Shown: in pieces, positions 14,355 through 34,791 of the stretch
Layout: every line of letters starts with the position of its first letter
Numbering within the stretch: the stretch's first letter is position 1
Assembly: GCA_947584535.1 (NCBI GenBank)
Contig: CANPWO010000002.1
Location: 12,784 to 76,783 of the forward strand
Direction: 5' to 3'
From: an uncultured Clostridia bacterium
GTDB lineage: Bacteria > Bacillota > Clostridia > TANB77 > CAG-465
DNA length: 64,000 bases
Translations under genes and position numbers: made by a program
Notes under the pieces: generated by a model
Database searches by the model: none
Told to the model about the DNA's origin: nothing
The model's input: only the letters and a program-made list of their open reading frames with translations

Positions 14355-17300
14355 TTAATTAAAATCTGTAGCAGCCCTATTATCAAGATCATATAATATT
14401 ACAGTACCTTTTATATCCTGATAAACACTATCATCAATAGACCAACTACCTTTTTCAAGTTGTAAATTAACTCTAGCAGATTGTCCCGCAGTAACTCCCA
14501 TATATCCTTCATAATCCCATTGACTTGTATTTGGTATACCACTTTTAGTTTTATCATTTTGGTTATAATATGTTTCTATTGTTGGTCCTCCTGTTCTACT
14601 TTCAACACTATGCATATCATCAAACACTACACCTATATATCCATCATTTAATGGATTATTAATGTTATTATGCTCTGTTGAACCACTACAATCTACAGCA
14701 ATTGTAGAGTTAGGTAATTTAAATTCTCCAAACCAAGTTTGTATATATCCTGAATTTGACATCAGCATCATATTTGTGTTTAAAACTATTTTTTCTGACA
14801 CATTAAGTTTTTCAAGTTTATTACTTATTTTGTTTATTTCTCCACTATCAATAGGATTAAATAAACCATATCTATAACCATCATTTGGTTTAAAATATAT
14901 ACTATAACCGCTATTTACAAATTCCTTATACTTGCCAGAAGAATCTTTATAATATAATTTTATATCTTTTATATATTTTCCAGATTTAGAAACGTAATAA
15001 TATTTTGGTGTTATCTCAATTCTCTTAACAGCATTTCCACGTGTATAATATCCAGATGTACTTACGTTAAAGCTTATTCTATAACCAAGTTTAGGAGCAA
15101 AAATATATGTTGACTGAGTATTTTTATATGGACCTAATGGTAATAATGTTTTTCTATTAGCATCTTCTAACATAAACTCATTATTTCCAGAAGACATATC
15201 AGAATATACAAAATATTTTTTACCACTAAAATATACATTATTTGTATGTTGATTTACTTGACTACCACTATTGTTTTGTTTTCTAAATATATTTTTATAA
15301 GCTAAATCTGTACAATCAGTAACCATAAAGTCAAATATTCTTCCTATATTATTTGTAGTAACTTGTGTTCTTACTGCATGATTAGTAGAAGCATATAAAT
15401 CATTACGCTTTAATAAATTATCTGTAACTTGTGATGTTAATGTCCTCCTATTAGTAACAGCTGTAGTTGAACTAGATGTATCAATATATTTTCCAAAATC
15501 AAAGAAATTTCCCCAAGACATACTTCTTGCAATCCAATTAGAAAAATTTTTAAAATTTGAAGATGTTATTCTATTACTATTTGAATCAAAAACATCTCTT
15601 AATCTTGTATTATCAATTGATTTTGTAACGGCAACTACAGAAATATGATTTGAAGTTGACCATGCAGAAACATAATCTTCTGTACCAGTTGAGATACCTT
15701 TAAATTTTATATTTGAGCCTTCAACATAAACATCAGTATTAGCTTCTATAGAGTTTCCAGGATTTAAATCATCCCATCCGCCTGAGCCATTATACACTTT
15801 TGCGGTAGCTTCACCTCTATATTCTAACTTAAAATCAAAAGTAATATAGTATCCTTTTATATATCTATCAGTAGGAACATTACTATAAATAGAACCAGAA
15901 TAATTCTTACTGTTTACATCTAAAGTAAATTCTTTACCAGTTTGTAACACAGAACCCGACACATTAGAATGATTTACAGAATTTTCAGTATCTATTTTTG
16001 CATTAACTGATAATGGTGTTAAAACATTAACTCTTCTTACTTTATCTGCATTAAAGTCTCCTTCATTATCATAAGTGCTACTAAAATTAGAACTTAATTT
16101 TCCAACTTCAATACTTTTATTATTCTCAATAACATTTGAATCATTTGTATTTGTTAAAGCCTTATCAGCAGTAAAATTAGAATTTCCACCTCTAACATTA
16201 ACTTTTGAATATGTAATATCACCTTTTAACTGTCTTATACCATTTTGGTTTGATGCATTAACTGTTTGTATATTACCTGAATAATTAAAGTCATTATATG
16301 TAGTTAAATTTTGTGTACCTTTCATATAATTATCAATATTTGAAGATAAGTAATCTGATGTAGTCGAGTCTAAGGTATATTCATTACCATTTTGTGAAGA
16401 TATAGTTTTACTAATACTTTTTTCATTTCCTTTTGTTAATTCTACATTATTATCTATTTTTACAACATCATTTGTACATGTAGCTACTAATTTTAATCCT
16501 ACTGCATTTGCCACTGCAGAAGCTGATGGATTATCTCCTGCACTACTTGTGCTAGTACTACTATATTTAAAATCAGCTGTCAAAACATGATCTGTTATAG
16601 TTGCATTACTTCTACTTAAATAATCGTTACTAGTTGACAAAGTAAATGAATCGTTAGAGTTAAATAATTTTCCACCAATGTTAGAGTCACTATCATTAAC
16701 TTTTACATTAGATATTTTATATGTTATTAAATTATCTATCTTGTTATATTTATATTTAACCTTTGCAGTATATGTGTAATTGACAGATTTAGCATGTCCA
16801 GGACATGGATTTTCTTCATCACCACAATCATCATACTCCGTCCAGTTTCCTGTTAATGTAACACTTACTGTTTTATCATCACTAGATTTATAATCACTAA
16901 CTCCATAATCAATTGCCTTGATAAAATATGGCTGTGCTCCATATATATATGGAGATAACTGTTCGTTAGCTGGAATATAATCTAATTCAGTAGCAGTTCT
17001 ATCAGAACTTCTATATGTTGCACCTTTAAAATATGAACCAGTATTTATAAAATCTAATCTTCCTTCTACTTTTGGATCATGTTCATTGCTTTGTATAGAA
17101 GTGCCTGGTTTAAAATAGAAACTTATTAAATATACTCTAGTTTCGCTTAAGCTTGGGATAATTAATCCTTTATTATTTTTAGGTGCTGTTCCACTATTTA
17201 AACTTCCAATTCTTAAAGCTTCCAAATAATCGCTTCCACTTGCATATTTCATTCCAACATAATAATATTGTTTACCGTTATATGATAAAGCTGTTGTTTT

Positions 17301-18758
17301 ATTATATATATCATTCTTCAGACTAATAGTGCCAACTCCAGAGATTTTCCTTACAAATTTTTGAGGATAAGGAGCAATATCAGCAGGTTCTATTTTAGTA
17401 AAGTCTCCTATTTGTGTCTCATCTAAACTACTTTTAAAACTTTCAACTGTTGTCATTGTTGTTTGATCTATATAATTTACATATACTTGAACCTCTTTAT
17501 CTATTTTTACAACTTCTTTATAATAATATACTACTCCTAAATCGCCAGAAATTTGATTAGCACCATCAACATGGCAATTTTTAACGTTATTACCATGCCA
17601 AACTTCACTATTATTATTTGAAATATTGTAAACATAAACTTCAGCACATTCATATGTTTTTCCATTATATTGTATTTGAGCAGCAGCATTATTTCCAGAT
17701 AATGTAGTTAATCCATTTGATGTAATATACTTTTCTTGCCAACCACTTGAATCTATACTTGTATATTGATTTTCCAAAGTAGTATTACTATCATCTACTA
17801 ATTGAGTATTTGCAATACCAATTATATTTTCATTTGAATTAATTATTTTATGTGCTACAAAAACACTTCTATTTCTTGTTGGAATTGATATACGATTATC
17901 AAAATTATTTAGCACAGACTGCCCTTTAATTCCATTTTCAGCGACGTCATGCCAAGAAGTAGAATCATATGTCCATATATCTCCTTCAGGACCGAAACCA
18001 TAGTTAGAATTTGCCCACGAATTTTCCATATTACTATAAAAATCATATGCATTATTATATAATCCTGCATTACCCCATTTAGTAGCTAATATGCCACTAA
18101 AAAAAGTCTCATAAGTATTGCCAGTTCCTGCACTAACTCCAAGTTTATTATACAAAGCTTTTGTTGCTTCATTATTTAACTGGAATGTATTAATTGTAAA
18201 CCAATTATTAGTTGTTCCTTGAACATTATATAAATCATAACCATAATGCTCTTTAGTCCAACTATTCACTGTTAAAATTTCTAGTTCTAATAAATCATTA
18301 AAGCTTTTTCCAGTTATCCATGTAGGTGCCATCGCAACTTTACTTTTATAGCTCTCTAAATCATATACACCATCTGAACCCCCTCCAGTATACACATTAA
18401 ATGGTCCTTCAGAACTATAGTCATATCCAACAAATCGACTTGCTCCACTTTTTGCATCGCTATAATTTGACATATACCTATTATGGAAAGTTACACCAAC
18501 AGTCTCATATGAACCTGAGCCACCTCCAGAAGATTTAACTGCAGAATGAGACTCCACATCGGATGTGTTATTATAATTAGGACTATCCTTACTAAATGAT
18601 TTAACATAATTTGTCCATCTAAGACTCATTGTATTCTCAGAATAAGAATTTAATAATTCTGCCTTATAATACAAATCTTTTGCAAATAAAGAAGGTGCAA
18701 AAAAACATATTAAAGTTACTAATGAAAATATAATTTTGTTTATAATATTCTTTTTCAT
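14355..18758 (-). CDS. Large secreted N/S/T/Y-rich protein (1467 aa), last gene of the filament operon
   Basis: Sec-type signal peptide (MKKNIINKIIFSLVTLICFFAPSLFA). No recognisable catalytic motifs. A 9-nt gap separates it from the upstream gene. Confidence 0.7.
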   Translation of the reverse strand: MKKNIINKIIFSLVTLICFFAPSLFAKDLYYKAELLNSYSENTMSLRWTNYVKSFSKDSPNYNNTSDVESHSAVKSSGGGSGSYETVGVTFHNRYMSNYSDAKSGASRFVGYDYSSEGPFNVYTGGGSDGVYDLESYKSKVAMAPTWITGKSFNDLLELEILTVNSWTKEHYGYDLYNVQGTTNNWFTINTFQLNNEATKALYNKLGVSAGTGNTYETFFSGILATKWGNAGLYNNAYDFYSNMENSWANSNYGFGPEGDIWTYDSTSWHDVAENGIKGQSVLNNFDNRISIPTRNRSVFVAHKIINSNENIIGIANTQLVDDSNTTLENQYTSIDSSGWQEKYITSNGLTTLSGNNAAAQIQYNGKTYECAEVYVYNISNNNSEVWHGNNVKNCHVDGANQISGDLGVVYYYKEVVKIDKEVQVYVNYIDQTTMTTVESFKSSLDETQIGDFTKIEPADIAPYPQKFVRKISGVGTISLKNDIYNKTTALSYNGKQYYYVGMKYASGSDYLEALRIGSLNSGTAPKNNKGLIIPSLSETRVYLISFYFKPGTSIQSNEHDPKVEGRLDFINTGSYFKGATYRSSDRTATELDYIPANEQLSPYIYGAQPYFIKAIDYGVSDYKSSDDKTVSVTLTGNWTEYDDCGDEENPCPGHAKSVNYTYTAKVKYKYNKIDNLITYKISNVKVNDSDSNIGGKLFNSNDSFTLSTSNDYLSRSNATITDHVLTADFKYSSTSTSSAGDNPSASAVANAVGLKLVATCTNDVVKIDNNVELTKGNEKSISKTISSQNGNEYTLDSTTSDYLSSNIDNYMKGTQNLTTYNDFNYSGNIQTVNASNQNGIRQLKGDITYSKVNVRGGNSNFTADKALTNTNDSNVIENNKSIEVGKLSSNFSSTYDNEGDFNADKVRRVNVLTPLSVNAKIDTENSVNHSNVSGSVLQTGKEFTLDVNSKNYSGSIYSNVPTDRYIKGYYITFDFKLEYRGEATAKVYNGSGGWDDLNPGNSIEANTDVYVEGSNIKFKGISTGTEDYVSAWSTSNHISVVAVTKSIDNTRLRDVFDSNSNRITSSNFKNFSNWIARSMSWGNFFDFGKYIDTSSSTTAVTNRRTLTSQVTDNLLKRNDLYASTNHAVRTQVTTNNIGRIFDFMVTDCTDLAYKNIFRKQNNSGSQVNQHTNNVYFSGKKYFVYSDMSSGNNEFMLEDANRKTLLPLGPYKNTQSTYIFAPKLGYRISFNVSTSGYYTRGNAVKRIEITPKYYYVSKSGKYIKDIKLYYKDSSGKYKEFVNSGYSIYFKPNDGYRYGLFNPIDSGEINKISNKLEKLNVSEKIVLNTNMMLMSNSGYIQTWFGEFKLPNSTIAVDCSGSTEHNNINNPLNDGYIGVVFDDMHSVESRTGGPTIETYYNQNDKTKSGIPNTSQWDYEGYMGVTAGQSARVNLQLEKGSWSIDDSVYQDIKGTVILYDLDNRAATDFN

Positions 18759-18767
18759 ACTACCTCC

Positions 18768-20027
18768 TTAATTTGTTTTTATTTCATTTTTTGATATATC
18801 TAATAACATAGAGCTTATACTTTCTTGAGAAACATATACCTGTTTAGAGCCAAATACATATCCCATTTTTGCATCTATGTATACAGTATAATTATTTTTA
18901 TCATATATCTTTGTTTTCCCTATATTATCCATATATAATAAATTTTCTTTAGTATTAGCTTCTTTTACCTCAAATTCAAGTTTCATCCTAATTCTGCAAT
19001 ATCCACCATCGTTATATATACAAGGAATTTGAGCAGTTGCCTTACCCGAAATACTAATTTTATTATTTTTTACATATTGAACATATTTATTTAACTCAAC
19101 ATCTTCTACATTTCCTACAACTAAATTTTGTAATTTTTGATGTAAATCATCATATGAAATATCTTTATATGATATATTTAAAATACTATTAAAATAATCT
19201 TCTGCCGTTTTTATTGTACTTATATAATAATCTTTTCTATATGTATAAAAATCTGCTGGATTAAGAAATTCTTTTTCTTGTTCAACTTTATATGATTGCT
19301 CATAAACTTCTTTATCTACATCAGACACAATATATGGATAATCATTAGAATTGCTAGGTAAATTTTTTTCATCTGTTACAATTGTTCTTCCTAGGATTGA
19401 CAATAAATTATACTTATTTATATATTTTATTATTATTCTATTACATAATCCCTTTTTCAAAGCTTTATATGCATTTAATCTATATTTACTATTTTCTATT
19501 ATATCTTCACTTAATAAATCCAATATATATATTTTTTCATTATCATTATACTTTTTGTAATCACTTAAATTAATAGTATCTGTAGAAGAATATTCTTTAC
19601 CTAATAAATAATACTTTGCTTTTGAAATATATTGTATAATATCCATATATCTAGCACTTTTATTTATATTTTTTATATTTACTTCTTCAGGAGTTGTAAT
19701 TCCAATAGAGTATGAATAATTAAGTATTTTCTCTTCTTCATTCTTTCCCTCAGTATTTAGAATTAATTCTTCTATTTCCAAAGTATTTTTTGTAGAACAA
19801 ATTGCTAATTTTAAAGCTTCAATTTTTGTAACATTCTCATTAGGATTATTGCTTTCATTATTATACAATTTATTTAATCCATATATATTAATTTTTTCTT
19901 CATATTCTCCATATTCATATTTATCTTTAAAATTTAAGATTAATATAATACCAAATAATAAAATTACTACTATACAAGAAATTATTAATATAATTAACTT
20001 TGCTTTCTTGTTATTTTTTAACTTCAT
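18768..20027 (-). CDS. N-terminally membrane-anchored protein, paralog of 20036-21370
   Basis: One TM segment (LIILIISCIVVILLFGIILIL). It shares INIYGLNKLYNNE...VTKIEALKLAI and a C-terminal YCRIRMKLEF block with the neighbouring gene. Confidence 0.65.
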   Translation of the reverse strand: MKLKNNKKAKLIILIISCIVVILLFGIILILNFKDKYEYGEYEEKINIYGLNKLYNNESNNPNENVTKIEALKLAICSTKNTLEIEELILNTEGKNEEEKILNYSYSIGITTPEEVNIKNINKSARYMDIIQYISKAKYYLLGKEYSSTDTINLSDYKKYNDNEKIYILDLLSEDIIENSKYRLNAYKALKKGLCNRIIIKYINKYNLLSILGRTIVTDEKNLPSNSNDYPYIVSDVDKEVYEQSYKVEQEKEFLNPADFYTYRKDYYISTIKTAEDYFNSILNISYKDISYDDLHQKLQNLVVGNVEDVELNKYVQYVKNNKISISGKATAQIPCIYNDGGYCRIRMKLEFEVKEANTKENLLYMDNIGKTKIYDKNNYTVYIDAKMGYVFGSKQVYVSQESISSMLLDISKNEIKTN

Positions 20028-20035
20028 TACATCAC

Positions 20036-21370
20036 CTATTTATTTGTATTACTAACTATACAATCATTAATACTTTGTAAATATACATATAAACTATTTT
20101 CGTTATCACGTTTATTTACTGGCAAATCAACTATAACTTGTCTATCATTTTCATCATAATTATATGTATTGTTATACTTAAGACTATCACCAAAGAATAT
20201 ATTGTTCTTATTATCTGCATTTTCAATAGAATATGAAACAGTACATCTTATTCTATAATTATTTCCATCAAAATAAAATGCAGGGTATACCACTTTACAT
20301 TGTCCTTTAACAATAATATGATTGCTTTTTACATAATTTATATATTCTTCTATTGTTTTATCTGGTACAGGATATAACAAACTATCATTTAATGCTCTTT
20401 TAAAATCATCAATTTTAATCGTATTATAATCAATATTTAAGATTGTTAACATATATTCTTGTACTCTAACTCCTAAAGAGTAAAAATTTTCTTTAAACTC
20501 AGAATAAATTTCTGAAGGTTTCTTAAATTTTGTAACATCTGAATACAAATATCTTGTTTCATATGTTTGCTTATTAACATTTGATACACAATATGCATAA
20601 TCTAAATAATTTTTAGGTAATTTTTCATCATTTATAACTATCTTTTCATCATTTTCTGTAATAGTATTATATTTTTCTGAATATAATACTATTAATTTAT
20701 TTAATTCACCTTTTGATACTTTCTTATCCGCATTTAAATTCTCAGATTTATCTTCAATAATCTTATTCCATACCATATCTCTAATAATAATTTTATCTTC
20801 ATTACTATATTTATCAAAATCTGAAAATTTTGGATTTGCCTCTATATCAGTATTTAAATTCAATATTTTAACTTTAGAATTATACATATATTTTAAACAA
20901 TCCATTAAAGTTGCTTTATCATTATAGTTGTCTTTATTTATTTCATTATTAGATATAATTTCATTTTCTATTGCATATTCTACCCACTCTTGATTTTCAT
21001 AATCTAAATTCTCAATATAGACTAATTTATCAATATTTGACATATTTATAGTAGCAGATACAATTAACTTTATAGCTTCACTTTTTGTAACTCTCTGATA
21101 TTCTGTAGTTTTCTCATTATCATATAATTGTCCAAATCCATAAATATTCATTTTATCAGAATATTGACTATATTGTTTATATTTATTTAAAAACAAATTA
21201 ATAATCAAAATTATACTTACAGAAAGTATAATAAGTATTATAATACAAATTAATACTTTTGTAATTTTTGATTTTATTTTTTTTGGTTTATTGTGCGTTT
21301 CAACTTTTTTATTATAATTAGGTATAATTTTAGTCTTGTTTTCTATAATATCAGTTTTATTTTCTTCCAA
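20036..21370 (-). CDS. N-terminally membrane-anchored protein, paralog of 18768-20027
   Basis: One TM segment (VLICIIILIILSVSIILIINLF), MNIYGFGQLYDNE...VTKSEAIKLIV, and C-terminal YRIRCTVSYS. Confidence 0.65.
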   Translation of the reverse strand: MEENKTDIIENKTKIIPNYNKKVETHNKPKKIKSKITKVLICIIILIILSVSIILIINLFLNKYKQYSQYSDKMNIYGFGQLYDNEKTTEYQRVTKSEAIKLIVSATINMSNIDKLVYIENLDYENQEWVEYAIENEIISNNEINKDNYNDKATLMDCLKYMYNSKVKILNLNTDIEANPKFSDFDKYSNEDKIIIRDMVWNKIIEDKSENLNADKKVSKGELNKLIVLYSEKYNTITENDEKIVINDEKLPKNYLDYAYCVSNVNKQTYETRYLYSDVTKFKKPSEIYSEFKENFYSLGVRVQEYMLTILNIDYNTIKIDDFKRALNDSLLYPVPDKTIEEYINYVKSNHIIVKGQCKVVYPAFYFDGNNYRIRCTVSYSIENADNKNNIFFGDSLKYNNTYNYDENDRQVIVDLPVNKRDNENSLYVYLQSINDCIVSNTNK

Positions 21371-21385
21371 TTACATCACCTCTTT

Positions 21386-22564: not shown

Positions 22565-22586
22565 ACTTTTCCCCCCTTTTTATCAA

Positions 22587-24443: not shown

Positions 24444-24461
24444 AATATTACTCCTTCCTGT

Positions 24462-27467: not shown

Positions 27468-27977
27468 TTATTTTTGTTGAAATCTAATACCTACAATTGC
27501 ATCATTTAAAGTTATAAGATTAGCTGAAAACTGAGCTGTAGTTGGAATATATTTAGCTTTTCCAGCTGTAGTTATATCTCCCATACTAGTTGTTGTTTTT
27601 GCAGCTTTAGTAACTGAAGAAGTGCTTGCAAGAGCCACTCTTCCGTCTGAACCTGGAGTTGAAGTTGGATTATTACTATAGCTAGTAGGAGTAGCCCAAT
27701 AATCCCCACCATTTGCTTTTAAATCTACATAAACAGCTAAATTAGTGTTATTATAATAGTTTTTTACAGCTGACAAAACTTGTGCACCAGTCATAGTTAC
27801 ATTATCATAACTATCTGTTAATTGTTGTTGTAATTGCGAACTCATTCCACTTAATTGTTGTGTTCCACTATTAAGTAAATCTTGTCCCATTCCAGTTATA
27901 AGCATTACTGCTGCTATAATTATAATAGTTATAAAAAGTCCTACACCAATCATAATCGCTTTTTGTGCGTTATCCAT
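27468..27977 (-). CDS. Pilin-like protein 1 (169 aa), candidate major subunit
   Basis: MDNAQKAIMIGVGLFITIIIIAAVML. It is the first structural gene after the platform gene, has a strong AAAGGAGGAAA RBS, and has its own flanking hairpins. Confidence 0.7.
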   Translation of the reverse strand: MDNAQKAIMIGVGLFITIIIIAAVMLITGMGQDLLNSGTQQLSGMSSQLQQQLTDSYDNVTMTGAQVLSAVKNYYNNTNLAVYVDLKANGGDYWATPTSYSNNPTSTPGSDGRVALASTSSVTKAAKTTTSMGDITTAGKAKYIPTTAQFSANLITLNDAIVGIRFQQK

Positions 27978-28071: not shown

Positions 28072-30129
28072 TTAGAAAGTCATATTGCTAAAGTAAGACA
28101 TCATTTGCATTATACTTACTATCATAAGTGGTGCAACTAAATATCCACCAATTAGTAGTACCATAGGTGCAAACCCTAATACCTTACCATAAGTAACTTT
28201 CTTTTGAATAAGTCTTTCATTTGCATCCTTTCTTCTTTCATGGAAGAATGCTCTTTCAGTTTCAAGTTCATCAAATGCATCTCTAATAGGTATTCTTTCA
28301 ACTGCAGAAAGTAATTGTTCGCATATTCTTTGGAAATCTTTGTATGGAACATCTTCCTTTAACTGTTCAAGAGCTACCTCTGCACCTGCTTCATAGTTGT
28401 TTAAACAAGTTGCAATTGGCTCCTTAAATGCATATGAAAATCTTTCAAGCCATTCAAGTATTGTTTGAACATCAATTCTATCAATATACATAAGCATTAA
28501 TATAATTGACTGAAATTGCATTATTTCGTTTTCTTTTTCCATTTCTCTTATCTTGTTTCTAATCATTAAAAGTAACGTTGGCATATAATATGCAACTATT
28601 GCGCATAAAAGAGAAACTAATACATGCCAAAATTTAATATATGAATTATTTACCGTATTTATTTTATCATATACTCTATCAACAGCTGTTTGATCAACTG
28701 TTCCAGTAGCCGAATCAGTAAACTCCATTGCTAGTTCTTCTTTTGTTACATTTTTGTTTTTGTACTTGTCTAGATAAGACTTATCTCTTTCATTTAATGC
28801 TTCTGCTGCTGCTTCTTGTTCAGCACTTAACTTACCAAATGATAAAAATTCATCACTTATTTTATTGTATACAGCACTAACATCAATTCTTTGCATGTTA
28901 AACATCAATATAAGTACGAGTATAAATGTTATAGCTGCCGCTGTAAGTTTATTAACATATAACCATTCTATTGTTAGATAAGAGTTTGTATTTTTTATAA
29001 GGATTGTTTCATTTCTATTTTTTCTAGTATGTGGCTTAGATTTAAAAGCATCAACTATCATTTTTACAAATGGATATTTATATACCTTATCTTGCCACTT
29101 CCTACCAGACATTCTATCAAATTTTATTTCTTCTGAATCTTCACGTACAATTCTAAGCATTAGATAAGAAATAAATATTGATACTATAATTAATGACTGC
29201 ATTACAAAGCCTATACTACTGTTATAGAAATTAGATAGTGCAGGGAAGTTTGACTCTGCCCAACCTTGTAATGGTTTTATTGCAAAAAGAGGTGCAACTG
29301 CAATTATAGTTAAACTTCTAAACATATAATTGATTTTATCTCTTTTTAATATTTCTAGATGTATCTCAGTTAATATATTATTTAAATTTTTAAGATATAC
29401 TGAAGTCCCATCTACTTTTTTATCTCCAAGATCAAGAGTTAGATAAGATACACCTGCAAACAGTTTTAAAAATCTATTTGGTGCAGTATCATAGTATCTT
29501 TCAAGCTCTGTTTCTGGATTAGTTGAAAGCATTGCTTCTTTAATTCTTTTTAGTTGAGGTACAACTTCTTTTTCGCCTAAATCGTCAATTGCCTCAACGA
29601 AAGATTCTTCTATCATTCCATGTTCATGAAATGCATGTCTTATACTTGTAAACACTTCCGGTAACTGTCTTAGTATCTTTTCTGATACAGCTGTTATTCC
29701 AAAATCTATTATCTTTTCTGTAATAATAAGTACACCTACTATTATCATTAAAGACATATACAAGTCATTTACTAAATTTATAAATACAAATAGTGAGACA
29801 AACAAGAATCCAAGTGCTATAAGCATTGACTTACCAGTTCTACGTCTTATTTCATATTCTGTATAATCGTTTGTCATTTCCATTTTTAGTCTTGTCTTTT
29901 TAGTATAATATTTTATAATTGGCATTTTTACAAATGTTAAATAAACAATTTGATAAATTCTATCAAAACCATCTTTAACTGAGCCTTTATTTTTTACAAC
30001 TAATTGATCTTGACTAAAAAGTGCACTATTCTTTTTATATCTTCTTTTTACTAATTGAAAATATACAAGTAAAGCAATTAAACCAACAACTGATATTGCA
30101 ACTAGGCCTATAGCTATATAAATTATCAA
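28072..30129 (-). CDS. Polytopic membrane protein, TadB/TadC (T2SS-F)-like platform, long fused form (685 aa)
   Basis: Multiple TM segments separated by helical cytoplasmic regions. It sits immediately after the CpaF-like ATPase, and the assignment rests on position and architecture. Confidence 0.55.
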   Translation of the reverse strand: MIIYIAIGLVAISVVGLIALLVYFQLVKRRYKKNSALFSQDQLVVKNKGSVKDGFDRIYQIVYLTFVKMPIIKYYTKKTRLKMEMTNDYTEYEIRRRTGKSMLIALGFLFVSLFVFINLVNDLYMSLMIIVGVLIITEKIIDFGITAVSEKILRQLPEVFTSIRHAFHEHGMIEESFVEAIDDLGEKEVVPQLKRIKEAMLSTNPETELERYYDTAPNRFLKLFAGVSYLTLDLGDKKVDGTSVYLKNLNNILTEIHLEILKRDKINYMFRSLTIIAVAPLFAIKPLQGWAESNFPALSNFYNSSIGFVMQSLIIVSIFISYLMLRIVREDSEEIKFDRMSGRKWQDKVYKYPFVKMIVDAFKSKPHTRKNRNETILIKNTNSYLTIEWLYVNKLTAAAITFILVLILMFNMQRIDVSAVYNKISDEFLSFGKLSAEQEAAAEALNERDKSYLDKYKNKNVTKEELAMEFTDSATGTVDQTAVDRVYDKINTVNNSYIKFWHVLVSLLCAIVAYYMPTLLLMIRNKIREMEKENEIMQFQSIILMLMYIDRIDVQTILEWLERFSYAFKEPIATCLNNYEAGAEVALEQLKEDVPYKDFQRICEQLLSAVERIPIRDAFDELETERAFFHERRKDANERLIQKKVTYGKVLGFAPMVLLIGGYLVAPLMIVSIMQMMSYFSNMTF

Positions 30130-30134: not shown

Positions 30135-32027
30135 TCACCTCCATGCTACATCAAGGAAGTTATCAAATTCCTTCACATCTTCAGGAGACATATTTTCTCT
30201 CATTGAAGTAATATTTTCTTCACTTATTGGATTTGTAAATACATACTTTCCATCATGCCACTCTACTATATTTCTATATGTATAATTACCATTCTCTGTT
30301 TGGTGTTCAAAATATTCAACTGCATTATCCATGAATTTATCTAGTTTACCATCCATTGATCTTTCATTTTTATAATCGTTATTATAGTTAAATTCAGGAT
30401 CTAGAGGAATACACTCTGTTATTCTTTCTATATATCTTGTTCCATCTACACCTCTTTTTAGATGGATATCAAAGTTTATAACTTGTACAACCTGTACTTC
30501 TGCAACATTTTCATTATTGAACATTCCAATTTTTAGTAATGAGTTTCTTAGTGCTGTTATAAGGTTAGGGAATGTTTTAGCATGGTGTGTAAATAATGTA
30601 AATTTAGAGGCAACCTGTGCCATTTGAATCATCCAAGCAGCAACGGGGTCTGTTGCAACCTCTCCTAGGATGTTAACACCACCATCTGTTTTCTTTTGAA
30701 CATCAAGTCCCATTTGACCTGTAATTGTATCTGTTTCTCTTAAAGATAGGATATTGTGATAAGGATAAATTTTTCTTAAGTGCAATTCGAACGCAGTTTC
30801 CTGTACACGAATTGTAATTGTTGGATATAAGTATTTCATTATAGCCATTAGAAGTGTTGTTTTACCACAACCCTGCTCACCTGTTATAGCTGTTACTCTT
30901 GCACCTCTAATAAGATACTTAAGCAATTCAATAACATTTTCTTTATTTTCATGTATAAGTAGTTGTTCTGCAGATATTAAAGTTGGTGGAGCAAATTTTC
31001 TTACGAAAAATGCCCATGATTCTGAGAAGTTTGGTCTAAGAACAACAACTCTGGAACCATCTTTCATTTCATTGATTTTAAAACCAACTGATTCAGATAA
31101 TTGTCCTGGATTATTGAATTTATATATATTTTGACATACTCTTTTAAGTTCTGCTTCACTGCCAAAAGATAAGAATGATAAATATGTAGCTTTACCTTTA
31201 TAGAATATCCATACTGAATCATATGACATCGGTATTTTTCTAGTTCCCATTTGTTCAAAATATTCATCCATACCTGAAATTTGATCTAGGAATGAAGGTG
31301 GGATACCAGATACACCACCAGATACACCATCAATATTCATATCACGAATATCATCAATTACGCTATATCCTTTATATCCTTGATATATTCTTTGAACAAC
31401 TATTTCAAGTTCATCATCAAATGTTAATGTATCAGCTGATACCTCTCTTGCAAATATATCTTCTATTTCTTTTGCAGTTATAACATATGATGGAACCTCA
31501 GGATCAAACTCATATTTTGGTACATCCAAATTATATTTTGTAATAATTTCTGTTAATGCTTCAGCATTATATTTCTTTTTATATATATGAAGCAAAATTT
31601 CAAACTTATCTTGAGGTGTCAATTCATCAAAATTATTAAAAGGTATTGCATTATTTATATTAAATTCATTTACTTTATAATTATTTCTAAGCAAATCAAA
31701 CATAAGAGTTTTTACATATTTTTTATCACTCTTATCTGCATAACCTGCTCCTTTTAATGCTTTTTTTAAATCATATTTTACATTTCTTCTTCTTTCAAAT
31801 TCCTCTTCTGAAAGAGCTAAATCATATAGATTCATTCTTGTTATTTCATCAAATTCTTTCTTTATATATTCTTTCATTTGATTTATACTATATTTTTCTC
31901 TTTCACGTGTTATAAGGTCTTTCTTTTCTTCTTGGTCAGAATGCTTTATTTTATAATAGAAAAAGCCCACTACAACTGCTACTAATAGAAGAATTAATAA
32001 TATGTTAAATATAAATGCAACTGACAT
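30135..32027 (-). CDS. cpaF: CpaF/TadA-type (T2SS-E/VirB11 superfamily) secretion ATPase with an N-terminal TM helix
   Basis: Walker A GEQGCGKTTLL, with downstream ETAFEL, ILGEVA and FTHHAK boxes in CpaF order. The N-terminus MSVAFIFNILLILLLVAVVVGFFYY is strongly hydrophobic. Confidence 0.75.
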   Translation of the reverse strand: MSVAFIFNILLILLLVAVVVGFFYYKIKHSDQEEKKDLITREREKYSINQMKEYIKKEFDEITRMNLYDLALSEEEFERRRNVKYDLKKALKGAGYADKSDKKYVKTLMFDLLRNNYKVNEFNINNAIPFNNFDELTPQDKFEILLHIYKKKYNAEALTEIITKYNLDVPKYEFDPEVPSYVITAKEIEDIFAREVSADTLTFDDELEIVVQRIYQGYKGYSVIDDIRDMNIDGVSGGVSGIPPSFLDQISGMDEYFEQMGTRKIPMSYDSVWIFYKGKATYLSFLSFGSEAELKRVCQNIYKFNNPGQLSESVGFKINEMKDGSRVVVLRPNFSESWAFFVRKFAPPTLISAEQLLIHENKENVIELLKYLIRGARVTAITGEQGCGKTTLLMAIMKYLYPTITIRVQETAFELHLRKIYPYHNILSLRETDTITGQMGLDVQKKTDGGVNILGEVATDPVAAWMIQMAQVASKFTLFTHHAKTFPNLITALRNSLLKIGMFNNENVAEVQVVQVINFDIHLKRGVDGTRYIERITECIPLDPEFNYNNDYKNERSMDGKLDKFMDNAVEYFEHQTENGNYTYRNIVEWHDGKYVFTNPISEENITSMRENMSPEDVKEFDNFLDVAWR

Positions 32028-32058: not shown

Positions 32059-32874
32059 TTAATTATCCCTAATTTTTGCAAGTTCAAATATTTTATTTAC
32101 TACATCCATTGTTTGTGAAATAAACATTCCATTATAATCCTTTGGGTCTGCATTTAAATTTCTATAGAAGAAATCAATAACATTTCCCATATTACATGCA
32201 TCTGCATAAAGATAATTATGAGGAACTGCATATATTGGATCTTTTACTCTAAATTTATTTTTTATATTCAAAATATTATATCTAGAATGTGGTTCATAAT
32301 CAGCTATTAAGAATATCTTTGTTTTATCTTTTAGCTCTTCCATATTATTTACTTTTTCAAAGAAATCATTTAATTTTACTTCATCTTGATTAACTACACA
32401 TACAACAATTTCAGCATCTGAAAGAGTGTCTAATTTAAACTTTTCATCATCGCTCTTTGGTAAGTCAACAAAAACCAGATCATAAACTTCAGCAGCTTTT
32501 CTAGTTATATATGGAAGATTATTTACAAGTTGTGAGTAATCTTCTTTTTCTTTAGAATTCATACCATATAAAATATCTAAACGCTCTTTTAAAACTGGTT
32601 TTGCATAGTTTTGTATTGCATCAGCAGTTAATTTATTAGATGTAACAAGTCTAATTAATGCACTTACACCTAAACTTGAACTGTCTAATGCACCACTTGC
32701 AATAAGCTCATCATAAGGAGTAAAAGATGATTCTATTTTTTTAGAATTAAAATGTCCTTGCATAAGTAAGCATGTTGCTTTATGTGATATACCCATTAAT
32801 GTACTAACTGCAACAATAGCATGAGTTGTTCCAACCATTGTATTATCTGGGCTCCAAAATACTACTCTTGGCAT
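32059..32874 (-). CDS. ParA/MinD-fold (TadZ/CpaE-like) protein with a degenerate P-loop
   Basis: RVVFWSPDNTMVGTTHAIVAVS replaces KGGxGK[ST]. A Walker-B-like LVFVDLP is present. It lies between the other ParA-like gene and the ATPase. Confidence 0.55.
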   Translation of the reverse strand: MPRVVFWSPDNTMVGTTHAIVAVSTLMGISHKATCLLMQGHFNSKKIESSFTPYDELIASGALDSSSLGVSALIRLVTSNKLTADAIQNYAKPVLKERLDILYGMNSKEKEDYSQLVNNLPYITRKAAEVYDLVFVDLPKSDDEKFKLDTLSDAEIVVCVVNQDEVKLNDFFEKVNNMEELKDKTKIFLIADYEPHSRYNILNIKNKFRVKDPIYAVPHNYLYADACNMGNVIDFFYRNLNADPKDYNGMFISQTMDVVNKIFELAKIRDN

Positions 32875-33584
32875 TAATCTCTCCTCCTTTTGATTTTATT
32901 TGCTACATCTTTAGATGTTACATCATCAACTATTTCAGCTGTAATATCAGCTATAGTACTTATATATGGTTTAGAATGTTTTTTAATATCAATTAAGCCA
33001 CTTAATTGTGAATCAATATTTTCAATTCTATCTCTATCATCATTTGGTATTTCATATTCTGGTTCAATCCATTTTACATTATATTCGTCTATTTGTGTTT
33101 CAAAATAATTTTCACTTGACCTTGATAAATATGCTTTAAACCATACTTTAGTAAGTTGTACTTCCTCTTGTTGATTATATACTCTTATTGCTTTAACCAT
33201 TTCTTTATTTTTAGCTATTGATAAAACACTTGTATCTATAAAGAAGTATACTTTATCCATTCCTCTTGTTCTAAATAGTTCATACCCTTTTGGGCTATCA
33301 ATATCAATCAATATATGATCATAAAGATTGATATTGATACCTTGTTCTATCATATAATTTTCAACATCATGCATACTGTTAAATCCAACAGCAAAATCAA
33401 TATTATTATATTGTGTAACATATGACCTTCCAATATTATCCAACGCAGGAACAACATACTTTAATTTTTGGTCTAACGTTGCATCTACAACAAGTACAGA
33501 TTTATCCATTATATTTATTGTTCTAGCTAAATTAATTGCAAAATCATATTTATCCATATAGCCTACTAATCCAATTACTTGCAT
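32874..33584 (-). CDS. Second ParA/MinD-fold (TadZ/CpaE-like) protein with a degenerate P-loop
   Basis: MQVIGLVGYMDKYDFAINLA and VLVVDATLD follow the ParA layout without a lysine-bearing Walker A. Its stop overlaps the start of the downstream gene. Confidence 0.5.
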   Translation of the reverse strand: MQVIGLVGYMDKYDFAINLARTINIMDKSVLVVDATLDQKLKYVVPALDNIGRSYVTQYNNIDFAVGFNSMHDVENYMIEQGININLYDHILIDIDSPKGYELFRTRGMDKVYFFIDTSVLSIAKNKEMVKAIRVYNQQEEVQLTKVWFKAYLSRSSENYFETQIDEYNVKWIEPEYEIPNDDRDRIENIDSQLSGLIDIKKHSKPYISTIADITAEIVDDVTSKDVANKIKRRRD

Positions 33585-33633: not shown

Positions 33634-34791
33634 TTATTCTTCAGTAGTTTCTTCATCTACAGTTTCAACAGGTGTTAATAACTCTGTTCTAAGAGCTTTT
33701 TGATTAGTTATAGATTCTTGAGCACCAGAAACAACATTATTATAATCATCACCACTATCAGCTTTGTAATTATTTATTCCATTTTCAATATTTGCTCTAG
33801 CTTCAGCACTTAATTTTGCTTTTGCTTCTTCTAATATATTTCCATTAGTTTGCATCATTGCCATAACTTGCGCATTTGGTTGATAGTTTTCTGTTGTTCT
33901 TGTTATAGTACTAGCAAAGCTTTTATATTTTAATATTAGATTAAATATTGAATTTACAGCAGCATCAGCATCTTCAGATTTTATTGTATCTAATTCACCT
34001 TTTATTGCTTCTGTTAGTCTACCTTGTATTACAGAAGCTGTATCAGTTGCTTGAGTTGTAGTAGCGTTATCTGTAGTTGCAGTAGTATCAGTTGTTCCAT
34101 CAGTAGTTTCTGCATCATCATCATCTTTATTTGTAGATAAAGCTATGCTATCTGCTACTTTAATTTGAGAATCACTATCTGCATATTTTGTTGCATATAA
34201 TTTTGTTCCTTGATTTAAGAAAGAATCTACGATAGCACTATTTAAAAGCAATCTTTCATCTTCAGCTAAATTTATCCACATAGTTTGACCAGCAATTTTT
34301 TCAACTTGTTTTTGAGCTAAAACAATATAATCAGTACCATTTGGGTACATTATTCTTATATCAACATAGTCTAGTTCATTTAAATCACTAGGCATAACAA
34401 CAGTATTAACTTCTTGACTTCTTATATCAGCAGATATAATTTCATCAGTTAACATTGATTCTGTTAATGGTACATTAGCTGCGATATTATATTTTGCAAC
34501 TTGACCTGAAATAGATCCAACATCTAAAACTCCTGATGGAATTGTTTTAACATGTATTCTAGCAGTTGTAACCATATCATCAGTTATTACTTCTCCTTGA
34601 ATAACATCTCTTGTTAAAACAGCTACATCTTTTGTATAAAGTTCATTAAATTTTTTATTAGTTCCATTCTCATAAGTTTTTATAGTAGAAATAGCCCACC
34701 ACAAAGTTAGCCCAATTCCTACTACTCCAATAGCTGCACCAATAATAATTCCTTGTACAGTCTTTTTCTTAATTTGACTCATTCCTATCAT
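33634..34791 (-). CDS. cpaB: CpaB/RcpC-like pilus assembly protein (TM helix plus SAF domain), first gene of the operon
   Basis: N-terminal TM segment. VLTRDVIQGEVITDDMV and AANVPLTESMLTDE are SAF/RcpC-like. A T/D/A-rich low-complexity linker is present. GGAGG lies 10 nt upstream of the start. Confidence 0.65.
   Translation of the reverse strand: MIGMSQIKKKTVQGIIIGAAIGVVGIGLTLWWAISTIKTYENGTNKKFNELYTKDVAVLTRDVIQGEVITDDMVTTARIHVKTIPSGVLDVGSISGQVAKYNIAANVPLTESMLTDEIISADIRSQEVNTVVMPSDLNELDYVDIRIMYPNGTDYIVLAQKQVEKIAGQTMWINLAEDERLLLNSAIVDSFLNQGTKLYATKYADSDSQIKVADSIALSTNKDDDDAETTDGTTDTTATTDNATTTQATDTASVIQGRLTEAIKGELDTIKSEDADAAVNSIFNLILKYKSFASTITRTTENYQPNAQVMAMMQTNGNILEEAKAKLSAEARANIENGINNYKADSGDDYNNVVSGAQESITNQKALRTELLTPVETVDEETTEE

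Follow-up and report, generated by a model that had tools for sequence, protein, structure and literature searches.

A probable Tad-like type IV filament operon in an uncultured gut Clostridia bacterium, with relatives on plasmids of cultured Bacillota

Described systems and their correspondence to the locus

The closest described system is a 'pilus gene cluster' that Kim et al. (2024, Nat Commun 15:10726; PMC11680825) present as confined to TANB77, an uncultured order of the gut. The published cluster comprises 12 genes (927–938 of HRGM_Genome_2725, CAG-245 sp000435175) and is a single-copy core trait found in 122 of 129 TANB77 species (95%). The material consisted of MAGs and one recombinant protein, and the products were assigned as CpaB, TadZ, CpaE, TadA/CpaF, a fused TadC+TadB protein and pilin-like proteins. 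Roseburia and Paenibacillus TadA/CpaF are given as sequence homologues of protein 930; beyond these, the sections drawn on here mention no plasmid relatives, and the term prepilin peptidase does not occur in the paper.

Canonical Tad/Flp systems are known from tad (Aggregatibacter) and cpa (Caulobacter), and the Firmicute version was represented by the locus of C. botulinum pCB111, in which the platform genes are separate and the Flp-like pilins measure 57–77 aa. Archaeal adhesion pili (Epd/Aap-type) carry class III signal peptides, and modular type IV pilins are known from Streptococcus sanguinis (PilB/PilC) and from the R64 thin pilus (adhesin PilV). Tad is evolutionarily linked to archaeal systems (Denise et al., 2019; PMC6668835).

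The locus analysed here occupies positions 34791 to 14355 on the minus strand of a window of 64 000 nucleotides (contig CANPWO010000002.1), the whole stretch of DNA that was analysed. It corresponds to the TANB77 cluster, with which it was matched on gene order, sizes and component assignments, and is hence not new. Product sizes are near-identical: the first five measure 358/231/280/640/693 aa in the published cluster and 385/236/271/630/685 aa here, and those downstream measure 165/170/143/146/237/178/621 aa as published and 169/157/182/146/313/128/(131)/477 aa here. Both have a one-TM-helix ATPase, a fused TadC+TadB platform, small pilin-like proteins without detectable homology and an uncultured low-GC gut Clostridia host. 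An earlier note on this DNA had read the locus as a separate and little-known branch of the type IV filament superfamily, with a host resembling Clostridia; the branch and the host stand, but a description of the system already exists (Kim et al., 2024; PMC11680825). The published cluster has 12 genes, whereas the conserved module here runs on through genes 14–17. The additions to it are the reach of the module through a 1467 aa protein, plasmid relatives in cultured Bacillota, a frameshift in gene 12 and the finding of no prepilin peptidase near any of 82 gut loci. In all probability the host is a monoderm, spore-forming gut Clostridia bacterium of low GC content, and the operon probably specifies a strongly diverged, Tad-like machine for a type IV filament.

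Operon layout and assembly machinery

Seventeen genes form one operon, an unbroken run of co-directional ORFs, as the earlier note had proposed. Neighbouring genes are spaced from a 1 nt overlap (gene 3 start and gene 2 stop) up to 94 nt, and the gene 17 stop codon is followed by a strong terminator-like hairpin (14293–14330, minus strand; 15 bp stem plus T-run), one of only two terminator-like sites within 14000–24000. The promoter presumably lies in the 335 nt gap 5' of gene 1 (34792–35126, minus strand), where the DNA is 25% GC and a sigma-70 scan found sites no more frequently than in shuffled sequence. The products of genes 1–9 comprise 385, 236, 271, 630, 685, 169, 157, 182 and 146 aa and those of genes 10–17 comprise 313, 128, 91, 477, 392, 444, 419 and 1467 aa; all coordinates given below refer to the minus strand. 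A crude hydropathy scan located one N-terminal hydrophobic segment in each of the products of genes 6 to 17, in agreement with the hydrophobic starts claimed previously for the downstream products, and also in the ATPase and in gene 1. The 91 aa ORF (gene 12) is only seemingly an exception, being the downstream portion of a frameshifted gene. The setting is chromosomal, with sporulation and housekeeping genes around the locus. Matches were found in 271 species; gene order was compared and found to be kept in 80 loci, each from a different GTDB species, so that the arrangement is not due to chance.

Gene 1 (33634–34791) encodes a membrane-anchored CpaB/RcpC-like protein with a single TM segment (residues 12–30), a SAF domain (residues 55–114) and an acidic, Thr-rich C-terminal region. 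It matched Pfam SAF at 6e-10, over the cutoff, and the CpaB model TIGR03177 at 4e-6, with a score of 26.3 that lies below the cutoff of 71; hhalign against three CpaB/SAF proteins of canonical Tad loci gave an E value of 1.3e-4 over 267 columns. The expected CpaB-like SAF protein is thus found as the first gene on the Pfam and hhalign matches.

Genes 2 (32874–33584) and 3 (32059–32874) gave no match in the Pfam search, and weak sequence signals suggest that both products are degenerate ParA/MinD-like proteins, that of gene 2 being a putative P-loop analogue of TadZ/CpaE. The gene 2 family profile weakly matched MinD (0.007, 0.013) and FlhG in the PDB; its P-loop is degenerate here (GYMDKYD) and canonical (GADRTGKS) in the C. 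argentinense plasmid homologue, and a Walker-B-like motif (YDxhhhDxD) is retained. Gene 3 matched MinD only marginally and contains YDLVFVDLPKG and a P-loop-like WSPxxxxxGTT that lacks the lysine. Its Thermobacillus composti homologue is named ParA by NCBI, and its TANB77 counterpart is ascribed a TadZ/CpaE-like fold by Kim et al. (PMC11680825).

Gene 4 (30135–32027) encodes a membrane-anchored CpaF/TadA-like secretion ATPase, consisting of an N-terminal TM helix, an extension of about 250–270 aa and an ATPase core at residues 270–550. CpaF was the best match among solved structures (E values of 3.8e-7 with the single sequence as query and 9e-8 with the profile); next came 2oap, a secretion ATPase from archaea (0.008), and VirB11 (0.085). 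The catalytic boxes are invariant (Walker A, GEQGCGKTT; Asp box, QETAFEL; Walker B, ILGEV; His box, THHA), and the T2SSE profile score of 17.3 bits is below the 24.9-bit cutoff. Identity between species is 61–98% for the ATPase and 30–60% for the pilins.

Gene 5 (28072–30129) encodes the inner-membrane platform, a tandem TadB/TadC (T2SSF) fusion of 685 aa that is visible by profile–profile comparison only; HMM-to-sequence searches gave no match. Using a family profile from 116 sequences as the hhalign query, the N-terminal half aligned to canonical TadB/TadC with a probability of 97% (E value of 2e-11, 241 columns) and the C-terminal half with a probability of 86% (5e-6, 258 columns). Restriction to annotated T2SSF sequences gave E values of 3e-6 and 3e-4 for the two halves, and the reversed and shuffled controls were clean (0.1–0.99); the structure model failed, with a pLDDT of 36. 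The CpaF-like ATPase and the long TadB/C-like platform described in the note are therefore supported, and both proteins belong within the T2SS-E/F families.

In common with canonical Tad, the locus has a CpaF-type ATPase, a TadB/TadC-type platform, a CpaB/RcpC SAF protein, ParA/MinD-like accessory proteins and small downstream subunits in one operon. However, its ATPase core is only 23–26% identical to those of canonical Tad and falls into a separate clade in a neighbour-joining tree; the ATPase is membrane-anchored and extended, the platform is fused and two short degenerate ParA-like proteins contrast with the single receiver-ATPase TadZ. The canonical Flp (50–80 aa with G/xxxxEY) is not in the locus, the subunits of which measure 128–477 aa; TadE/TadF HMM matches and TadV are also absent, and genes 14–17 are extra. 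Pfam and NCBIfam models for T2SSF, Flp, TadE and peptidase A24 found no match in the locus, and the prepilin peptidase hallmark GxGD[x]K was absent from the window, the 82 related gut loci and the fetched plasmid stretches, including 124 kb of pTHECO01. The profile searches thus agree with the previous reading that Flp, TadE/F and prepilin peptidase are not recognizable, and no standard Firmicute Tad or Com system matched gene for gene, the pCB111 locus being different.

Much of the proposed mechanism is drawn by analogy from established knowledge of type IV pili and of Tad. The CpaF-type ATPase (gene 4) would act as a hexamer, anchored in the membrane through the helix at its N-terminus, and power the platform (gene 5), one polypeptide in which the TadC and TadB domains are joined. 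The platform would take hold of each pilin at the hydrophobic N-terminal helix, draw it out of the membrane and insert it at the filament base. The CpaB-like protein (gene 1) may form an envelope-spanning collar, and genes 2 and 3 may place or scaffold the machine in the manner of TadZ/CpaE.

Pilin-like subunits and downstream proteins

Gene 6 (27468–27977) encodes the candidate major pilin (169 aa). Its N-terminus (MDNAQKAIMIGVGLFITIIIIAAVMLITG) is near-invariant between species over the first 29 residues, while the C-terminal head is hypervariable and frequently present in tandem duplicates, a pattern that indicates diversifying selection on a surface that is exposed. The AF2 (AlphaFold) model (pLDDT 76) has a 55-residue helix over residues 3–57 followed by a beta-sheet head, as would be expected of a pilin-type N-terminal helix; it had no fold match in the PDB or BFVD.

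Gene 7 (26903–27376, 157 aa) is a pilin paralogue with 35% identity to gene 6 over the full length (E value of 6e-27), and gene 8 (26347–26895, 182 aa), weakly paralogous to both, is poorly conserved between species and was detected in the closest loci only. Two further small pilin-like proteins are encoded by gene 9 (25815–26255, 146 aa; N-terminus MEDVTVRAITIGVG), a gene 7 paralogue with its position kept in group 1 (loci with an ATPase 74–98% identical), and by gene 11 (24462–24848, 128 aa; N-terminus MNFITNKAIVIGVA), which is paralogous to genes 6 and 7. Gene 12 (24050–24443), also pilin-like, has its real start at 24443 (MEESAFQAIYTG...), and reading the sequence showed that a surplus C near 24317 shifts its frame by +1. 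Its orthologues are intact (131–161 aa); the same split into 43 aa and 91 aa occurs in ENA assembly ERZ27249228, the only fetched locus reaching this site. The paralogy groups within the operon are 6/7/8/9/11, 10/13 and 15/16. The major subunit is probably the gene 6 product, with its paralogues serving as minor or alternative ones.

The pilin-like proteins matched neither Flp, TadE and pilin models nor solved pilin folds. They resemble archaeal adhesion pili in subunit size (130–190 aa), in the lack of Glu at +5 and in a pre-segment that is short and has [K/R]-[A/G] as its last residues ahead of the hydrophobic helix, and the ATPase profile also picks up the archaeal secretion ATPase. They differ from them in the bacterial host, the CpaB and ParA-like partners and a pre-segment that is acidic or neutral instead of basic, and no PibD/FlaK/EppA-type peptidase was found nearby. 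Given the archaeal-like pilins, with a [K/R]-A-[I/L] junction reminiscent of class III signal peptides, the rank of the archaeal ATPase as second among the solved relatives of gene 4 and the extreme conservation of the ATPase, an archaellum-like rotary motility filament was considered. This reading is highly implausible: ArlH/ArlJ/ArlF/G/CDE-like genes are absent, the TadB/C-type platform with CpaB and ParA-like partners is a Tad trait, and a propeller is ill-suited to modular adhesin-like subunits.

These modular subunits are encoded by genes 10 (24864–25805, 313 aa) and 13 (22587–24020, 477 aa), two minor-pilin-like proteins with 49% identity over residues 1–79. Gene 10 consists of a conserved core of ∼180 aa, common to gene 13 and to 169–184 aa proteins of the plasmid modules, and a C-terminal dockerin (Dockerin_1, 4e-5, over the cutoff); dockerin-like motifs were found in seven loci. 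Gene 10 orthologues are 248–1497 aa long and those of gene 13 are 331–1264 aa long. In its architecture of a pilin-like N-terminal core plus variable C-terminal modules the pair resembles the modular type IV pilins, although the assembly machinery is from a different branch of type IV filaments. Gene 13, judging by its position and its large size, is likely to be the counterpart of 'pilin 938', the N-terminal quarter of which is TadE/PilV-like according to Kim et al. (PMC11680825).

Gene 14 (21386–22564) encodes a conserved membrane-anchored protein of 392 aa that has cysteines at its C-terminal end and a TadE-like N-terminus (DFALIFVAILLPIII); the hhalign match to TadE has an E value of only 0.04 and is confined to the N-terminal segment. 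Both gut groups have this protein, as do all three compared plasmid modules. The products of genes 10 and 13, with the conserved core and variable modules (here dockerin), and that of gene 14 may act as minor or priming subunits presenting adhesive modules. Genes 15 (20036–21370, 444 aa) and 16 (18768–20027, 419 aa) are membrane-anchored paralogues (32% identity over 401 aa, E value of 3e-52). The last gene, gene 17 (14355–18758), encodes a 1467 aa secreted protein with an N-terminal signal-like segment. Residues 1126–1466 of this protein share homology with the C-terminal regions of the large proteins closing the plasmid modules (E values: T. composti, 1e-14; P. urinalis, 1e-10; C. argentinense, 0.002, a weak match). 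Gene 17 itself did not match Pfam DUF5704, a domain present in its T. composti relative. Genes 15–17 would supply wall-associated or secreted partners, with gene 17 possibly an adhesin.

On plasmids as in the gut lineage, the module always closes with a large secreted protein and wall-binding proteins; together with the several minor subunits and the lack of a visible retraction ATPase gene in the operon, this would also suit a type II-secretion-like pseudopilus that exports gene 17 and wall-associated proteins through the thick wall without a long external pilus. We consider this improbable, since the hypervariable, duplicated head of the major subunit points to an exposed surface, gene 17 has a Sec-type signal segment of its own and the ATPase is of the Tad rather than the GspE type.

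Plasmid relatives and function

Homologous modules occur on plasmids of T. composti (pTHECO01, NC_019898), Paenibacillus urinalis (CP118110), Lysinibacillus sphaericus (pSSII-1, MT075580), C. argentinense (pRSJ17_1, CP014175) and C. botulinum (pST0210E1, KT897277); they are previously unstudied gene-for-gene relatives of the gut operon. BLASTP against the T. composti, P. urinalis and C. argentinense modules matched genes 1–7, 10/13, 14 and the C-terminus of gene 17 with the order kept, gene 2 being matched in the latter two only; the T. composti ATPase and platform are 57% and 37% identical. The L. sphaericus and C. botulinum modules are alike in layout as judged by annotation. This gene-for-gene correspondence implies that the gene set is a functional unit extending to the large last protein. 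The plasmid modules have fewer pilin paralogues and carry SLH or cell-wall-binding proteins at the place of genes 15/16; the SLH, cell-wall-binding-repeat or Cu-amine-oxidase-N proteins are presumably positional equivalents of gene 15.

The analyses establish the families of genes 1, 4 and 5, the pilin-like build and variation of gene 6 and the conserved nature of the module; we infer filament production, the roles of genes 2, 3 and 8–17 and a function in adhesion or colonization. The plasmid setting recalls R64, in which a type IV pilus lies beside conjugation genes. A coupling protein (T4SS) and a replication-relaxation (relaxase-type) protein adjoin the module in three of the five plasmids examined (pTHECO01, the P. 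urinalis plasmid and pSSII-1), pTHECO01 also has a Tcp-like Gram-positive T4SS alongside, and in the ATPase tree the gut sequences branch from within the plasmid clade. In Micrococcus luteus, Tad pili support transformation, and mating is stabilized by the thin pilus of R64. The filament could accordingly be mainly a DNA-transfer organelle (a mating-pair or DNA-uptake pilus) rather than a host or substrate adhesion pilus, the gut lineage having inherited the module from Bacillota conjugative plasmids and perhaps still exchanging DNA. This is a minority reading that we regard as rather unlikely. The tree is a neighbour-joining one with midpoint rooting only, and no coupling-protein, relaxase, GGDEF or HD homologues were found in the window or in the 82 gut loci with 10 kb on each side. 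Kim et al. (PMC11680825) report the cluster as single-copy and core in 95% of TANB77 species, which is unlike a mobile element. An adhesion pilus better suits the hypervariable heads and the modular adhesin-like minor subunits, and GGDEF and HD genes, typical for surface-attachment control, follow the plasmid modules of T. composti, P. urinalis, C. argentinense and C. botulinum.

Operon layout and chromosomal setting

The GC content is about 25% all along the window. An earlier note, made from the sequence alone, had described a tight minus-strand operon of seventeen genes, and this layout was confirmed. Genes 1–17 (34791–14355, minus strand) are consecutive ORFs with products of 385, 236, 271, 630, 685, 169, 157, 182, 146, 313, 128, 91, 477, 392, 444, 419 and 1467 aa, respectively; the spacing between them ranges from a 1 nt overlap to 94 nt, and a hairpin (14330–14293, 15 bp stem plus T-run) lies directly 3′ of the gene 17 stop codon, with a convergent gene opposite. 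The gap upstream of gene 1 is 335 nt. A promoter scan was uninformative in this 25% GC DNA (90 sites versus 94 expected); internal promoters are claimed for the related cluster of the gut order TANB77 (Kim et al., 2024; PMC11680825).

A hydropathy scan placed a single N-terminal hydrophobic segment in the products of gene 1, of the ATPase gene and of every gene from gene 6 onward except the 91 aa ORF, which lacks the segment because it is a frameshift artefact. Gene 12 starts at 24443, with a good ribosome-binding site upstream (MEESAFQAIYTGVY...), and one extra C near 24317 divides it into ORFs of 43 and 91 aa (24050–24443). Its orthologues in other species are unbroken (131–161 aa). The same split is called in another assembly of the same species (ENA ERZ27249228, locus L091, 15687–16080), the sole fetched locus that reaches the site. 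Gene 12 is either a real pseudogene or a site that needs a frameshift, among otherwise conserved small pilin-like genes.

The flanking genes encode SpoIID, YqfD, YabP, MreB, a tRNA ligase, a D-Ala-D-Ala carboxypeptidase and other similar proteins. Since these are sporulation and housekeeping genes, the window is part of the chromosome of a spore-forming Clostridia-like organism. An origin from a phage or integrative element was rejected on account of the same flanks and because the clade carries the cluster as a core trait.

The machinery proteins

[quoted passage not shown] The PDB sequences closest to the product of gene 4 were three CpaF structures (E = 3.8e-7 with the single sequence in phmmer and 9e-8 with the family profile, over approximately 275 residues), followed by the archaeal secretion ATPase 2oap (0.008) and VirB11 (0.085); no PilB, PilT, GspE or ComGA structure in the PDB was matched up to an E value of 10. 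The Walker A motif (GEQGCGKTT), Asp box (QETAFEL), Walker B motif (ILGEV) and His box (THHA) were invariant in an alignment of sequences with 61–98% identity, and the ATPase core is preceded by an N-terminal transmembrane helix and a conserved extension of about 250 aa. Gene 4 is thus predicted to encode a T2SSE/PilB/CpaF secretion ATPase of the type IV filament superfamily. The ATPase is strikingly conserved: more than 7500 homologues were found (the best 120 being 83–98% identical), with matches in 271 GTDB species. The closest relatives came from 'uncultured Clostridia' and from Clostridium sp. CAG:465 and CAG:1219 MAGs, names for which literature searches revealed no connection to TANB77.

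Sequence-to-profile searches of the gene 5 product for T2SSF were negative, whether Pfam was run on the protein itself, on 24 orthologues or on 64 distant relatives, and family profiles built from 24 and 116 sequences revealed no T2SSF link in the PDB. An AlphaFold model computed from 14 sequences (78–100% identical) reached a pLDDT of 36 and was discarded. The kinship with T2SSF was found by profile–profile comparison only, using as references the TadB and TadC proteins of Tad loci annotated on plasmids of Rhizobium, Azospirillum and Arthrobacter and of a canonical Firmicute Tad locus on Clostridium botulinum pCB111. With hhalign, the N-terminal half (residues ∼40–345) matched TadB/TadC with a probability of 97% and an E value of 2e-11 over 241 columns and the C-terminal half (residues 380–685) with a probability of 86% and an E value of 5e-6 over 258 columns; with the references restricted to seven annotated T2SSF sequences the values were 3e-6 and 3e-4, respectively, and reversed and column-shuffled controls gave 0.1–0.99. 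These matches in both halves argue that gene 5 encodes a T2SSF-family platform in the form of a tandem TadC/TadB-type fusion of 685 aa, whereas canonical Tad systems have separate tadB and tadC genes. A search for an internal repeat by comparison of the two halves (E = 0.03–0.05, 35 columns) was not counted as evidence. An exhaustive representative search gave 981 clusters at 50% identity for the gene 5 family, and most of the 150 cluster representatives listed, out of the 981, were full-length fusions of about 670 aa; the fused platform appears to define a sizeable family in which fusion is the rule. A TadC/TadB fusion is also inferred from predicted structures in the TANB77 study (Kim et al., 2024; PMC11680825).

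Gene 1 encodes a predicted CpaB/RcpC-like SAF protein, the counterpart of the SAF protein of canonical Tad systems (hhalign against CpaB, E = 1.3e-4; Pfam SAF, 6e-10, over the cutoff). Family profiles of genes 2 and 3 matched MinD/FlhG structures weakly (0.007–2). Both products retain a YDxhhhDxxx(G) Walker-B/switch-like motif and their P-loops are degenerate; at this position gene 2 has GYMDKYD, compared with a canonical GADRTGKS in the C. argentinense homologue. The Thermobacillus homologue of gene 3 is named ParA by NCBI. Comparison of both with TadZ/CpaE by hhalign was not significant (0.33–0.44), and no receiver domain was found in either, whereas canonical TadZ/CpaE combines a receiver-like domain with an atypical ParA/MinD ATPase. 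Genes 2 and 3 are read as degenerate TadZ/CpaE analogues, an assignment that draws in part on the structural comparison in the TANB77 paper (Kim et al., 2024; PMC11680825); the profiles point weakly to a ParA/MinD fold.

Pilin-like subunits and their maturation

Among the remaining products are three sets of paralogues (6/7/8/9/11, 10/13 and 15/16), and gene 12 matches the small pilin paralogues in size and N-terminal pattern. Residues 1–29 of gene 6 (MDNAQKAIMIGVGLFITII[I/V]IAAVMLITG) are almost invariant across species, and beyond them the protein is hypervariable; in many genomes the gene occurs as two or three tandem copies that share the first ∼50 residues and have different heads. Such a combination, a conserved helix for assembly and a head that is exposed and diversifies, is what a major pilin, flagellin or archaellin would be expected to show. 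An AlphaFold model of gene 6 (120-sequence alignment, pLDDT 76) consists of a helix spanning residues 3–57, a short helix and a multi-stranded β-sheet, a predicted fold with the 'lollipop' architecture of pilins. The head gave no Foldseek match with E < 0.1 (best 0.8 in the PDB and 0.13 in BFVD), the NTF2/SnoaL-like folds that were the top PDB matches of the model not being significant, and no pilin HMM matched the sequence. A sub-threshold Pfam match of residues 1–32 to the His1 virus capsid protein (E = 0.03–0.07) most likely reflects the hydrophobic helix.

Tad/Flp pili are built from an Flp major pilin of about 50–80 aa with a G/xxxxEY motif, whereas no such pilin is present here: the candidate major subunit, gene 6, has 169 aa and the N-terminus MDNAQKA/IMIGVG, and its comparison with Flp-like pilins by hhalign gave an E value of 0.23. 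Among 332 downstream proteins from related loci, the polar pre-segment is mostly 6–8 residues long, starts with M-D/E, carries a net charge of 0 to −3 and ends in K/R followed by Ala, yielding a [K/R]-A-[I/L] junction. Such a junction resembles archaeal class III cleavage sites. The Gly-1/Glu+5 signature is absent from the pilin-like N-termini, and none of the operon products carries an N-terminal methylation motif.

Genes 10 and 13 share a core of about 180 aa with a TadE-like N-terminus (…FFLLPLY…), followed by species-specific C-terminal modules, so that orthologues range from 248 to 1497 aa. Against TadE, hhalign aligned the N-terminal segment only, with E values of 0.085, 0.53 and 0.04 for genes 10, 13 and 14, respectively. 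The product of gene 10 (24864–25805) ends in a type I dockerin (residues 262–310; Pfam, 4e-5), and dockerin-like Ca-binding motifs were seen in gene 10/13-type proteins of seven of the related loci (L002, L003, L008, L015, L023, L060 and L065).

The prepilin peptidase family A24 of Pfam was matched by none of the 47 window ORFs scanned (all but two of the same-direction ORFs of at least 100 aa). The GxGD[x]K motif was absent from the window in six frames, from 82 gut loci with 10 kb on either side and from the plasmid stretches described below, including 124 kb of the 149 kb pTHECO01; the sole match in the scan, inside a CpaB-like protein, was attributed to chance. No prepilin peptidase is annotated in the plasmid stretches. 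This absence from the locus is compatible with a peptidase encoded elsewhere, since Tad peptidases can be unlinked; the TXSScan models treat the Tad peptidase as a 'loner' (Denise et al., 2019; PMC6668835). The pilins may be cleaved after [K/R]-A by such an unlinked peptidase, or they may stay uncleaved, with a conserved acidic residue at position 2–3 near the free N-terminus. On C. botulinum plasmid pST0210E1 (L094) a signal peptidase I gene (lepB, 24321–24809) lies just downstream of the module, beyond a GGDEF gene and one small hypothetical gene, and no type IV prepilin peptidase is annotated near it.

Standard profile libraries were nearly blank on the operon. Besides SAF and dockerin, Pfam gave a sub-threshold T2SSE match to gene 4 (17.3 bits against a cutoff of 24.9 bits) and nothing for genes 11–17; NCBIfam gave nothing beyond sub-threshold CpaB (TIGR03177) and 'TadA family' matches. 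The Flp model had no match, and neither library matched TadE or TadF. Because standard profiles find almost nothing, the earlier note was right to call the Flp, TadE/F and peptidase signatures unrecognisable, and the same holds for the platform signature. Its reading of the operon as a divergent type IV filament locus also proved right, given the CpaF-like ATPase, the T2SSF platform and the pilin-like model of gene 6. Every type IV filament model tested from Pfam and NCBIfam gave no match or fell below its cutoff, and HMM-based detectors such as TXSScan therefore probably miss the family as well; the platform, the pilins and any peptidase are invisible to standard libraries.

A canonical-looking Firmicute Tad locus was encountered on C. 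botulinum pCB111 (L087, NC_025146, 182.6–189.0 kb), with a SAF protein, a 468 aa ATPase, two platform genes of ∼290 aa and pilins of 57–77 aa with KKGG/LSQLLSVV leaders. Pfam T2SSF and Flp likewise failed to match the platform proteins and pilins of this locus at an E value of 1, so that this blindness is not unique to the TANB77 family.

Relatives in gut genomes and on plasmids

Gene order was compared among the loci of 80 species. In group 1 (ATPase 74–98% identical) the order 1–5, 6/7, 9, 10, 11, 13, 14, 15/16 is kept, and identity falls from about 84% in the ATPase to 30–60% in the pilins. In group 2 (L068–L080, ATPase ∼62% identical) small, divergent pilins (MDNASKALIMAGAILI...) lie downstream of genes 1–5, then a core of the gene 10/13 type (166 aa) and a homologue of gene 14, after which the genes are unrelated. 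Gene 14 is present in most related loci, including all group 2 loci. Judged by the gene content of group 2, the minimal set consists of the five machinery genes together with the small pilins, a single protein of the gene 10/13 type and gene 14.

A published cluster corresponds closely to the operon. Of 129 species of TANB77, an uncultured gut order, 122 carry one copy of a cluster of 10–14 genes (Kim et al., 2024; PMC11680825). Its proteins 927–938 match genes 1–13 in order, size and topology (Table 1 of that paper), and the ATPase has one transmembrane helix in both; the platform has six segments here in a crude scan, compared with eight by DeepTMHMM in the paper. From the order, sizes and topology of genes 1–13 we strongly infer that the operon is this cluster. 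The paper further describes the N-terminal quarter of protein 938 as TadE/PilV-like and reports that recombinant 938 activates dendritic cells via TLR4 and improves anti-PD-1 efficacy in mice; no filament was observed in that study and a peptidase is not mentioned (Kim et al., 2024; PMC11680825). Since the gene cluster and its component assignment are already published, the novelty of the locus at this level is low. The conserved module is longer than the published one; what keeps the locus of interest is its mechanism, the longer parts list and the existence of culturable relatives that bear the module on plasmids.

Searching PLSDB with the ATPase core (tblastn) gave 34 records with at least 80% query cover, the best identities being 63% for Thermobacillus composti pTHECO01, 54% for a Paenibacillus urinalis plasmid, 49% for Lysinibacillus sphaericus pSSII-1, 42% for C. 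argentinense pRSJ17_1 and 38% for C. botulinum pST0210E1. The three modules compared by BLASTP, those of T. composti (L081; NC_019898, 55.3–69.9 kb), P. urinalis (L082) and C. argentinense (L083), contain the same genes in the same order as the operon: a SAF protein, two ParA-like proteins, the ATPase (Thermobacillus, 57% identical over its full length), the fused platform (37%), pilins (N-terminus MSTNASKALYFGAS...), a gene 10/13 core of 169–184 aa and a gene 14 homologue of ∼340 aa. These are followed by an SLH, cell-wall-binding or Cu-amine-oxidase-N protein and, as the last gene, by a protein of 950–1200 aa annotated as DUF5704 on three plasmids. The other two plasmids, pSSII-1 and pST0210E1, have the same layout by annotation. 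Residues 1126–1466 of gene 17 are homologous to the C-terminal region of both Paenibacillaceae last proteins, the C. argentinense match being weak; as the plasmid modules end in such proteins, gene 17 belongs to the pilus system. In a rough neighbour-joining tree (midpoint-rooted, 280 core columns) the gut ATPases lie inside the plasmid clade as the sister of the Thermobacillus ATPase (72% core identity), and the combined clade is 23–26% identical to canonical CpaF/TadA.

The context of these modules bears on function. In three of the five plasmids the module lies just downstream of genes for a T4SS coupling protein and a replication-relaxation protein, on pTHECO01 it also adjoins a Tcp-like Gram-positive T4SS, and GGDEF and HD genes lie downstream of it in T. 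composti, P. urinalis and both Clostridium plasmids. This plasmid context makes it a real alternative that the pilus family originated in association with DNA transfer, or continues to act in it. The structural genes are homologous gene for gene, whereas the gut loci lack the coupling-protein/relaxase adjacency: neither the window nor the 82 gut loci contained a homologue of the coupling protein, relaxase, GGDEF or HD genes. A more specific version, in which the operon, now fixed in the chromosome, descends from an unrecognised Bacillota family of type IV filaments, ancestrally a Gram-positive 'mating pilus' of conjugative plasmids, with leaderless pilins that have no dedicated prepilin peptidase and use Asp/Glu at position 2–3 in the role of Glu5, is considered rather unlikely. 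No paper was found that describes the plasmid module, its role in conjugation or DUF5704.

A Com pseudopilus or type IVa pilus would comprise a ComGA/PilB ATPase, a ComGB/PilC platform, FTLIE-type pilins and ComC/PilD; the operon does not fit this composition, and none of its genes matched the NCBIfam Com and Pil models. The evidence best supports a Tad-like type IV filament machine whose platform is fused and whose ATPase is tethered to the membrane, with pilins that are large and hypervariable and minor subunits of modular build. The machine is a fixed chromosomal trait of a gut Clostridia lineage, in which its most plausible role is adhesion or colonisation. Filament formation, pilin maturation and any role in conjugation are accessible to ordinary genetics, because homologous modules occur in culturable strains of Thermobacillus, Paenibacillus, Lysinibacillus and Clostridium.

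Several further features of the window were recorded. The gene convergent with gene 17 (12779–14284, plus strand) encodes a protein with Cu_amine_oxidN1 and transglutaminase-core domains; it resembles the P. urinalis Cu-amine-oxidase-N protein located at the position of genes 15/16 (E = 6e-7, 23% identity), a likeness at the domain level only, and a functional link to the pilus module is possible. Directly upstream of the operon, a flavin amine-oxidase/NAD_binding_8-type gene (35127–36774, minus strand) is present as two ORFs of 305 and 263 aa that overlap by 62 nt; it is split likewise in ENA assemblies (279 and 263 aa) and may be a second frameshifted gene. Three AAA_14/DUF4143 ATPase paralogues are scattered over the window (3905–5197, minus; 11263–12558, plus; 39649–40947, minus), and a fragmented IS element (9650–10947, plus strand) retains HTH_28, rve and rve_3 in three short ORFs. 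A 2714 aa ORF (47839–55983, minus strand) probably encodes a giant surface adhesin; its product contains seven Big_2 repeats as well as fibronectin type III-like repeats, and over this stretch the AT skew is unusually strong (−0.3 to −0.46) and the GC content slightly higher.
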